Part shown: piece by piece, positions 2,788-4,772 of the stretch
Numbering within the stretch: position 1 is the first letter of the stretch
Layout of the letters: each line of letters starts with the position of its first letter
DNA from: Escherichia phage EmilieLinder_Bas103
Strand: one strand, 5' to 3'
Sequence record: PQ850602.1
Length of the DNA stretch: 40,176 bases
Notes under the pieces: generated by a model
What the model was told of the DNA's origin: nothing
Databases searched by the model: none
Seen by the model: only the letters and a program-made list of their open reading frames with translations
Made by a program: the position numbers and the translations under genes

Positions 2788-2866
2788 TTTATGCAGTAGG
2801 ATTGCATAGGGATTCATTAGAGACCACGGAAGGTCGATTTTTAAGTTATTGAATATAAAGAGAAAT

Positions 2867-2889
2867 CAATTCGACTCACTATAGGGAGA
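2867..2889 (+). promoter_or_regulatory. T7 RNAP promoter phiOR
   Basis: CAATTCGACTCACTATAGGGAGA, close match to 23-bp T7 promoter consensus; +1 G about 2884; upstream of gene 19.5. Confidence 0.8.
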
Positions 2890-3043
2890 GGAGGGACGAA
2901 AGGTTACTATATAGATACTGAATGAATACGTATAGAGTGCATAAAGTATGCATAGTAGTGTACCTAAAGTGACCTCTAAGAATGGTGATTATATTATATT
3001 AATATCACCTTAACTTAAAGACCAACATAAAGGGAGGAGACTA

Positions 3044-3193
3044 ATGTTCCGCTTATTGTTGAACCTATTGCGGCATAGAGTCACCTACCGCTTTCTTATG
3101 GTACTTTGTGCTGCCATTGGGTACGCATCGCTTACTGGAGACCTCAGTTCACTGGAGTCTACCGTTTGCTCTTTACTCACTTGTAGCGATTAG
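3044..3193 (+). CDS. 19.5: gp19.5-like small protein
   Basis: 49-aa ORF MFRLLLNLLRHRVTYRF... with RBS agggaggag; absent from ORF track (<60 aa); matches T7 gp19.5 from memory. Confidence 0.7.
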   Translation: MFRLLLNLLRHRVTYRFLMVLCAAIGYASLTGDLSSLESTVCSLLTCSD

Positions 3194-3432
3194 GGTCTTC
3201 CTGACCGACTGATGGCTCACCGAGGGATTCAGCGGTATGATTGCATCACACCACTTCATCCCTATAGAGTCAAGTCCTAAGGTATACCCATAAAGAGCCT
3301 CTAATGGTCTATCCTAAGGTCTATACCTAAAGATAGGCCATCCTATCAGTGTCACCTAAAGAGGGCCTTAGAGAGGGCCTAAGGAGTCCCTAGAGGGTCC
3401 TTTAAAATATACCATAAAAATCTGAGTGACTA

Positions 3433-3591
3433 TCTCACAGTGTACGGACCCAAAGTTCCCCCATAGGGGTCCCTAAAGCCCAGCCAATCACCTTGAGTCA
3501 ACTTTCAGTTGACTTTGAGGGTCCCTAAGGGTTGGGGTTGGTCCTTTGGGTTTGTCTTTGAGTGTTGCTTTGAGTGTCTCTTTGTGTCCCT
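3433..3591 (+). repeat. Terminal repeat (single copy, as at a concatemer junction); mature genome ends predicted here
   Basis: Begins TCTCACAGTGTACGGACC and ends ...GTGTCTCTTTGTGTCCCT, matching T7 160-bp direct terminal repeat from memory; only one copy in window, so repetition is inferred. Confidence 0.6.
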
Positions 3592-3602
3592 ATCTGTTAC
3601 AA

Positions 3603-3732
3603 CCTCCTAAAGTCACCTCCTAAAGTCACCTCCTAAAGTCACCTCCTAAAGTCACCTCCTAAAGTCACCTCCTAAAGTCACCTCCTAAAGTCACCTCCTA
3701 AAGTCACCTCCTAAAGTCACCTCCTAAAGTCA
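3603..3732 (+). repeat. Perfect tandem array: 10 x 13-bp unit CCTCCTAAAGTCA
   Basis: Directly counted 10 identical head-to-tail 13-bp units immediately right of the terminal repeat; T7 has irregular CCTAAAG-containing repeats here. Confidence 0.95.
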
Positions 3733-3893
3733 TTCCTACCGTCTACAGCCTAAAGCCTAAACCTAAAGACCCATCAAGTCAACGCCTATCTTAAAGTATC
3801 CTCTAAAGACCAGCCTAAAGCCTATCCCTAAAGCCTATCCTATAGATGCCCTGTTGTTGCCTATAAAGAGATAATCTTCAATCATTGTCTTTC

Positions 3894-3916
3894 TAATACG
3901 ACTCACTATAGAGAGA
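3894..3916 (+). promoter_or_regulatory. T7 RNAP promoter phiOL (variant, GAG at +1..+3)
   Basis: TAATACGACTCACTATAGAGAGA; one change from consensus in the initiating region. Confidence 0.7.
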
Positions 3917-3979
3917 CAGACAGAGAGAGACTACTTAAAGAGCCTTAAAGAGAGAAATTAAAGTTTTTAAAAAAGAGTA

Positions 3980-4008
3980 TTGACTTAAAGGGTCATAGGG
4001 TTTACTAT
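3980..4008 (+). promoter_or_regulatory. Host sigma70 early promoter A1
   Basis: -35 TTGACT, 17-bp spacer, -10 TACTAT; upstream AAAAAGAGTA A-tract; corresponds to T7 A1. Confidence 0.75.
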
Positions 4009-4105
4009 TCATCTCGTCAACGGGACAACGGCCCAAAGCCACTCCCTGAGATACCGGAGTCAACCGGATAAGTAGGCAGCCTGTAAGCCATACGAAAAAC
4101 AGGCA

Positions 4106-4135
4106 TTGACAACATGCAGTAACATGCAGTAAGAT
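4106..4135 (+). promoter_or_regulatory. Host sigma70 early promoter A2
   Basis: -35 TTGACA, 18-bp spacer, -10 TAAGAT; corresponds to T7 A2. Confidence 0.7.
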
Positions 4136-4213
4136 ACACAGCGTCAATCGGTAGCACACGGTGTCTTCTAGGTGACTTAAGCGCACCACGGCACATAAGG
4201 TGAAACAAAATGG

Positions 4214-4242
4214 TTGACAACATGAAGTAAACACGGTACGAT
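4214..4242 (+). promoter_or_regulatory. Host sigma70 early promoter A3
   Basis: -35 TTGACA, 17-bp spacer, -10 TACGAT; corresponds to T7 A3. Confidence 0.75.
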
Positions 4243-4335
4243 GTACCACATGAAACGACAGTGAGTCACCACACTGAAAGGTGATGCGGTCTAACGAAAC
4301 CTGACCAAAGACGCTCTTTAACAATCTGGTAAATA

Positions 4336-4398
4336 GCTCTTGAGTGCATGACTAGCGGATAACTCAAGGGTATCGCAAGATGCCCTTTATGATATCCA
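4336..4398 (+). promoter_or_regulatory. RNase III processing hairpin R0.3
   Basis: Hairpin ...ACTCAAGGGTATCGCAAGATGCCCTTTATGAT... upstream of gene 0.3, as in T7. Confidence 0.5.
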
Positions 4399-4424
4399 CT
4401 AACAACACTATGAGGTAACACAAG

Positions 4425-4772
4425 ATGGCTATGTCTAACATGACTTACAAAAACGTTTTCGGCCACGCTTACGAAATGCTGAAAGAAAACATCCGTTATG
4501 ATGACATCCGCGACACTGATGACCTGCACGATGCTATTCACATGGCTGCCGATAGCGCCGTTCCGCACTACTACAGCGACATTTTCAGCGTAATGGCAAG
4601 TGAAGGCATTGACCTTGAGTTCGAAGACTCTGGTCTTATGCCGGACACCAAGGACGTGACCCGCATTCTACAGGCTCGCATCTATGAGCAACTCACACTC
4701 GACCTCTGGGAAGACGCTGAGGACTTACTGAACGAGTACCTTGAGGAAGTCGAGGAAGAGGAAGAAGAGTAA
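4425..4772 (+). CDS. 0.3: Ocr, DNA-mimic anti-restriction protein (gp0.3)
   Basis: 115-aa highly acidic [25 protein letters not shown]..., near-identical to T7 Ocr; first early gene after A1-A3. Confidence 0.95.

Follow-up and report, generated by a model that had tools for sequence, protein, structure and literature searches.

A perfect 13-bp tandem array at the concatemer junction of Escherichia phage EmilieLinder_Bas103 is probably an expanded, copy-number-variable block of the T7 SRL repeats

The window, by which we mean the whole 40,176-nucleotide stretch of DNA that was analysed (record PQ850602.1, Escherichia phage EmilieLinder_Bas103), is the genome of a T7-like podovirus (Teseptimavirus) in circularly permuted form. 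Over its first 25 kb it is 98.1% identical to Bas104 (PQ850595) and to Bas64/JeanTinguely (MZ501081), and its identity with T7 is about 92%. In T7 the terminal repeat comprises nt 1-160, which is also the last 160 nt of the genome; it ends with GTGTCCCT and is followed by ATCTGTT at 161. The T7 left-end sequence TCTCACAGTGTACGGACC occurs once in the window, at 3433. The left genome end of the window itself is TCTCACAGTG at 3433, the left-end 18-mer is unique in the window, and BLAST matches to linear records stop at this same position. Because there is just one terminal-repeat copy in the window, we take it to be a permuted assembly in which the site of the array lies at the concatemer junction. 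The features around this junction, from left to right, are the following.

3260 to 3432, plus strand: right-end short repeats of the SRR type on the other side of the terminal repeat, with CCTAAAG, CCTAAGG and CATAAAG heptamers in the same orientation
3433 to 3591, plus strand: terminal repeat, collapsed to one copy at the concatemer junction; its homologue is T7 nt 1-160
3592 to 3598, plus strand: ATCTGTT, heptamer of the class II signal at which T7 RNA polymerase pauses or terminates in the concatemer junction (CJ), in the same position as T7 nt 161-167
3603 to 3732, no strand assigned: SRL block 1 (junction-proximal), ten perfect CCTCCTAAAGTCA units; the unit is that of T7 nt 185-197 and has 0-16 copies among relatives
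3733 to 3893, plus strand: rest of the SRL, consisting of a conserved middle segment, then a second variable block and one AATCATTGTCTTT unit before phiOL
3754 to 3782, minus strand: A0, a leftward E. coli promoter with -35 TTGACT (3777-3782), a 17-bp spacer and -10 TAGGCT (3754-3759)
3894 to 3911, plus strand: phiOL, a promoter for the phage RNA polymerase, TAATACGACTCACTATA, with G as +1, in a position homologous to the phiOL annotation of T7

The right-end repeats at 3260-3432 are nearly identical to the right end of T7 upstream of its terminal repeat. Within the terminal repeat of the window there is a 12-bp tandem repeat, CTTTGAGTGTCT, with 3.4 copies at 3544-3584. It is one unit shorter in Bas104 and longer in a contig from the metagenome assembly ERZ1036441; because the repeat count differs between genomes in this way, the length of the terminal repeat also varies by whole units. 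At the CJ, T7 RNA polymerase responds to a class II pause/termination signal whose conserved heptamer is ATCTGTT (bioRxiv 10.64898/2026.02.12.705533; PMC3276506). To the right of the array, Tandem Repeats Finder placed the second variable block of the SRL, made of 12-13-bp CCTAAAG units, at 3784-3842, and Bas64 has two extra units in this block. The AATCATTGTCTTT unit just before phiOL (3880-3892) is present once in the window and three times in Bas104.

In its hexamers and spacing, A0 of the window matches the A0 annotated in the T7.1 record DQ100054 and in NC_001604. DQ100054 places the -10 at 231-236 and the -35 at 255-259 and notes activity in vitro. In our scan with a sigma-70 consensus, A0 of the window fell below the threshold. 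A transcript from A0 would cross the array leftward. The host promoters A1-A3, which the same scan recovered, also lie to the right of the array. Several smaller observations were made in this part of the genome. The start of a phiOL transcript would fall within a short repeat of the AGAGACAGAC type, with two copies at 3911-3931, which differs slightly in length in Bas64. The spacer of A2, the hexamers of which are TTGACA at 4106 and TAAGAT ending at 4135, holds a perfect 10-bp tandem repeat, AACATGCAGT, with 2.2 copies at 4111-4132. A homing endonuclease gene annotated in Bas64 between the large terminase gene and gene 19.5 (639-1079 of the compared segment) is absent from Bas104 and from the window (2788-3043 compared).

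Read directly from the sequence, positions 3603-3732 consist of ten head-to-tail copies of CCTCCTAAAGTCA with zero mismatches. Tandem Repeats Finder reported the array at 3602-3732 with a period of 13, 10.1 copies, 100% matches and a score of 262, which makes it by far the strongest tandem repeat of the 40-kb window. When up to one mismatch was allowed, the unit had ten matches in the window, all of them within the array, compared with 0.08 expected from shuffled sequence. Thus, the ten perfect 13-bp tandem copies proposed by a sequence-only reading of this DNA were found by all three approaches. The heptamer CCTAAAG has a wider distribution, with 25 occurrences in the window against 4.5 expected; all except one are on the plus strand (24/25) and 17 of the 25 fall within 3326-3833. 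The stretch from the junction to phiOL has 14 CCTAAAG and 17 YNTAAAG heptamers, every one on the plus strand. The array starts 11 bp past the end of the terminal repeat and 4 bp past ATCTGTT, with ACAA (3599-3602) in between, and it lies upstream of both the conserved leftward A0 promoter and phiOL. The sequence-only reading had placed the array directly after the terminal repeat and before phiOL; its order relative to phiOL was correct, but the array does not abut the terminal repeat, since ATCTGTT and ACAA intervene.

This position and composition are those of a repeat region already annotated in T7. The T7.1 record DQ100054 gives 1-160 as the terminal repeat (TR), 175-338 as a repeat region with the name SRL, and 385-419 as phiOL. 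The array likewise sits between the terminal repeat with its concatemer junction and phiOL, and like the SRL it is composed of CCTAAAG-type heptamers in direct orientation approximately 12-13 bp apart. The array unit is identical to T7 nt 185-197, which lie inside the SRL and are the single occurrence of this 13-mer in T7, and the flanks of the array align with T7 and 20 other relatives. Roughly 280 genomes in databases have a match to the region. To compare it more widely, we parsed the interval from ATCTGTT to phiOL in 22 Teseptimavirus genomes and found a uniform architecture. A junction-proximal block of CCTAAAGT(C/A)(A/T)CCT units comes first, followed by a conserved middle segment with A0, then a distal block of CCTAAAGACCAK(A) units, and finally one to three AATCATTGTCTTT units and phiOL. 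Both the SRL annotation and this parse bear out the suggestion, made from the window alone, that T7 has degenerate CCTAAAG repeats at the corresponding place. The T7 SRL and the array thus share the site between TR/ATCTGTT and A0/phiOL, the CCTAAAG heptamer, its orientation, its spacing of approximately 13 bp and an identical 13-mer. They differ in that T7 has one perfect copy amid degenerate ones, whereas the window has ten identical copies, and in the length of the interval from the junction to phiOL, which is 227 bp in T7 and 302 bp in the window. Judged by these sequence comparisons, the array is an expanded junction-proximal block 1 of the T7 SRL, hence an ordinary element and not a new one. 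Similar expanded arrays are already in public records (Bas104, PHB20). The first description of the SRL is reportedly that of Dunn and Studier (1983), published along with the sequence of T7, and we know of no established function for it. A full-text literature search, with the classical packaging papers outside its reach, returned no paper on the function or variability of the SRL or of CCTAAAG repeats.

We also considered whether the array encodes or specifies something on its own. No open reading frame runs through the array, and those of at least 20 amino acids that touch it are all on the plus strand and stop within the first three units. With a period of 13 bp, TAA appears in every plus-strand frame within 39 bp. 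A protein-coding repeat was therefore rejected. A search of 3000-4600 against Rfam gave no match at E<=1. The plus-strand RNA of the array is predicted to be fully unstructured (minimum free energy 0), and the minus-strand RNA is predicted to form a long G-U-rich hairpin (-43.3 kcal/mol, z = -5.2), a fold that arises in the prediction only from self-pairing of the repeat via G-U pairs. With neither an Rfam family nor a conserved stable fold, a structured or known non-coding RNA was rejected. A sigma-70 promoter created by the array was rejected as well, since the promoter scan recovered only A1, A2 and A3; a check by hand of the 13-bp register revealed no acceptable -35/-10 pair on either strand. 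Lastly, we rejected an origin from a host or prophage because two tandem units had no match in 185,579 bacterial and archaeal species genomes.

By contrast with the uniform order of its elements, the SRL is highly variable in the number of its units. The sequence-only reading had asked for copy number to be compared between isolates, and in the 22 genomes the length of the perfect run of CCTCCTAAAGTCA ranged from 0 to 16. PHB20 has 16 units (plus one variant unit), the window 10, Bas104 9, SYGE1 5, an IME390-like genome 4 (plus one), and ESh1 and PVN09 3 each. Eleven genomes have two units; T7, Bas102 and Yanou have one, and PHB19 has none. Over the same genomes the interval from the junction to phiOL spans 185-390 bp. 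Large differences occur between phages that are otherwise very similar. Bas104 with nine copies and Bas64 with two are each approximately 98% identical to the window over 25 kb, and PHB20 (16+1), which is classified in species IME390, shares its flanks with the IME390-like genome (4+1). In the junction region, an alignment of the window with Bas64 has just 5 substitutions in 376 aligned positions; its indels measure 104 bp, equal to 8 units, and 24 bp, equal to 2 distal-block units. Compared with Bas104, the window differs here by one 13-bp unit of the array, one 12-bp unit within the terminal repeat, and changes in repeat units both in the distal block and ahead of phiOL. From these two comparisons, gain and loss of whole units seems to be the dominant change in the junction region.

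The array behaves in these genomes as a minisatellite (variable-number tandem repeat) does, with identical head-to-tail units whose number differs between close genomes. The idea that the array is a recently expanded, copy-number-variable element, raised from the window alone, agrees well with the 10, 9 and 2 copies found at approximately 98% identity and with 16+1 against 4+1 copies in PHB20 and its relative. In Bas104, vB_EcoP_PHB20 (MN481366), vB_EcoP_SYGE1 (MW883060) and the IME390-like genome from IMG/VR, the array has an identical 13-bp unit and occupies the same position. Bas104 has both flanks in common with the window and nine copies against its ten, whereas the flanks of PHB20 (16+1), the IME390-like genome (4+1) and SYGE1 (5) differ from those of the window, which argues for independent expansions in PHB20/IME390-like and in SYGE1. 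Runs of at least five units thus occur in three flank contexts (window with Bas104; SYGE1; PHB20 with the IME390-like genome), and on this ground we regard expansion as recurrent. As a comparison from an unrelated virus, 16-nt units in the inverted terminal repeats of monkeypox virus (PMC10101126) are likewise perfect, head-to-tail, non-coding, located beside a terminal repeat and variable in number between close lineages. Monkeypox virus is of another type, replicates in another mode and has termini of another structure, and the resemblance is one of behaviour and not of homology.

Two further observations concern the repeats of relatives. In the IME390-like genome and PHB20, all three distal heptamers are CCCAAAG and not CCTAAAG, and neighbouring units have thus changed in concert. 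In Klebsiella phage K11, the ATCTGTT junction is directly followed by a 12-bp repeat of different sequence, CACCTGAGGTTA, with 3.7 copies (218-262 of the compared segment), and among Klebsiella phages the same query span gave matched lengths of 312-372 bp. Variable repeats past the junction may be a general trait of the subfamily.

We consider it probable, at roughly two chances in three, that the array is an expanded allele of SRL block 1, a minisatellite formed by slippage or unequal exchange whose copy number is tolerated. According to this explanation, one ancestral 13-bp unit, found once in T7 and twice in most relatives, would have been amplified to at least ten identical copies. Amplification would have come about by slipped-strand mispairing during replication or by out-of-register recombination between units in concatemers. 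The array would then be non-coding DNA placed between the conserved ATCTGTT pause site and the A0 promoter, and copy number would drift up and down because the spacing between these two elements is evidently not constrained.

The number of units in the window needs to be treated with some caution. It is possible, although we lean against it, that the array exists but that ten is a collapsed or inexact count, an explanation which overlaps with that of an expanded SRL block. To evaluate this we simulated assembly with de Bruijn graphs in which N units were set between the flanks of the window. With k=127 the graph was unambiguous for N<=10, and for every N>=11 it contained a cycle with a shortest path of exactly 10 units, the number found in the window. 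The corresponding collapse values at k=55, 77 and 99 were 5, 6 and 8 units. The bearing of these values on the window depends on its assembler and read length. At 131 bp, the array is almost too long for 150-nt reads to cover. In the metagenome assembly ERZ1036441, one contig ends (12115-12174) and another starts (1-47) inside this same array, and the caution about assembly that accompanied the sequence-only reading was justified both by these breaks and by the collapse value of 10. The ERZ1036441 sample contained a related phage with at least five units. On the other hand, independent records with 9 (Bas104) and 16+1 units (PHB20) show that long arrays do get assembled, and for this reason the array is certainly long. 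Ten units may be a lower bound. More generally, the array is a point at which T7-like phage genomes assembled from short reads break and may be collapsed, so copy numbers in databases are to be read with care.

The location of the array also raises the question of whether the units serve in DNA processing. They could be extra binding sites for gp18, gp19 or the polymerase-lysozyme complex, with the number of copies tuning the cutting of the left end or duplication of the terminal repeat. The start of the array just 4 bp past the ATCTGTT pause heptamer fits with this. So does the report (PMC3276506, citing Zhang and Studier 2004) that DNA maturation is initiated through an interaction of gp18 and gp19 with the polymerase-lysozyme complex at its pause. 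The heptamers are conserved, oriented and present on both sides of the terminal repeat, and repeats occur at the corresponding position in T3 and K11. In addition, four units (52 bp) correspond to approximately five helical turns, so every fourth site would be on the same face of the helix. Against such a role, viable close relatives have anywhere from 0 to 16 copies. Moreover, phages with very different arrays share a 100% identical small terminase, gp18 (210-476 in the window), namely the window (10), Bas104 (9), SYGE1 (5), Bas64, AV103 and ESh3 (2 each) and Yanou (1). Co-variation of copy number with the small terminase was therefore rejected, and the number of sites is not constrained together with a cognate small terminase as would be the case in a terminase recognition array. 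T3 has only about four heptamers past its junction, yet its gp18 is 93% identical to that of T7 and interchangeable with it (PMC3276506). Overall, we think it unlikely that the units act as a dose-dependent protein-binding array. Protein binding, which the sequence-only reading had suggested, is not favoured by the comparisons made here.

A useful comparison is the cosB of lambda, where R sites bound by gpNu1 are, like the array, short direct repeats near the site at which terminase cuts the concatemer (PMC2366019). Unlike those of cosB, the units of the array are candidate sites only, and their number varies while the small terminase is identical. The two also differ in their relation to the direction of packaging. 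T7 DNA enters the cell left end first. Combined with the last-in-first-out rule for packaged DNA (PMC2366019), this makes it probable that the end carrying the array is packaged last. The sequence-only reading had put the array next to the end where packaging initiates; this probably does not hold, since the array lies to the left-end side, and that side would be packaged last.

These results lead back to the expanded SRL block with tolerated copy number. We asked if the two variable blocks of the SRL compensate for each other and hold the total number of heptamers constant. Totals were 9-13 in genomes without expansion and 16, 17 and 21 in those with expansion, and with a range of 9 to 21 compensation was rejected. 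Because gp18 is invariant, the heptamer total is unconstrained, T3 has few heptamers, and the array has no open reading frame, Rfam match or promoter, the extra copies seem to be tolerated rather than needed. Neutrality of copy number is something we infer from the viability of isolates with very different copy numbers. The extra copies would most likely be without a number-dependent function of their own. The region as a whole is a separate matter. In the window and its relatives the TAAAG core and its orientation are strongly conserved and the heptamers lie on both sides of the terminal repeat. Since TAAAG is the built-in anchor of our information-content table, the table shows just that the two preceding positions are Y and C/A/T and does not serve as an independent test of the conservation of the core. 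Because the core is conserved, heptamers flank the terminal repeat and K11 has a repeat there too, the SRL region as a whole may be functional. Whatever the nature of this function, it would reside in the conserved TAAAG-containing heptamer, and far fewer units than are present in the window would suffice.

A role at the level of RNA was also weighed. The plus strand of the unit contains TCACCTCCT, which we take to be nine bases of the 3' tail of 16S rRNA (the anti-Shine-Dalgarno). This sequence occurs nine times in the window, always inside the array, and the complement of the array carries AGGAGGTGA, a perfect Shine-Dalgarno sequence, ten times. RNA from the array could thus mimic the anti-Shine-Dalgarno or the Shine-Dalgarno, and a leftward transcript from A0 or a rightward transcript from a promoter at the junction could titrate ribosomes or mRNA leaders early in infection. 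Pairing of the complement RNA with the 16S tail amounts to -15.9 kcal/mol per unit compared with -8.8 for the ribosome-binding site of T7 gene 10. The conserved hexamers and spacing of A0 and the predicted lack of any structure in the plus-strand RNA are consistent with this idea. Rightward transcription could start at a cryptic host promoter of the junction. In reporter constructs, E. coli RNA polymerase used the junction sequence of T7 as an extended -10 promoter of the TGnTA type, and those who made the constructs suggest that the region may act at the RNA level (bioRxiv 10.64898/2026.02.12.705533). In the window, however, the -10 of the junction is TACAAC, without the T at -7, and several relatives have TGTTCA, without the A at -11. 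The predicted self-fold of the minus-strand RNA would mask the Shine-Dalgarno motifs, most relatives manage with two copies, and the match to the motif was spotted post hoc. We therefore regard this mimicry as extremely improbable.

Together, these data point to an expanded SRL block of variable, tolerated size. A much less expected outcome, to which we give little credence, is that the number of units is a tunable cis-acting dial, either by adding sites for the processing machinery at the paused polymerase or by adding Shine-Dalgarno/anti-Shine-Dalgarno mimics to an early transcript. If this were true, rapid slippage would let T7-like phages adapt concatemer processing or early translation to their hosts. 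The near-identical phages described here, with 0-16 identical units and an identical small terminase, form a natural allele series and a ready-made test set. This series could show whether the SRL repeats matter for concatemer processing, packaging and early transcription in T7-like phages.
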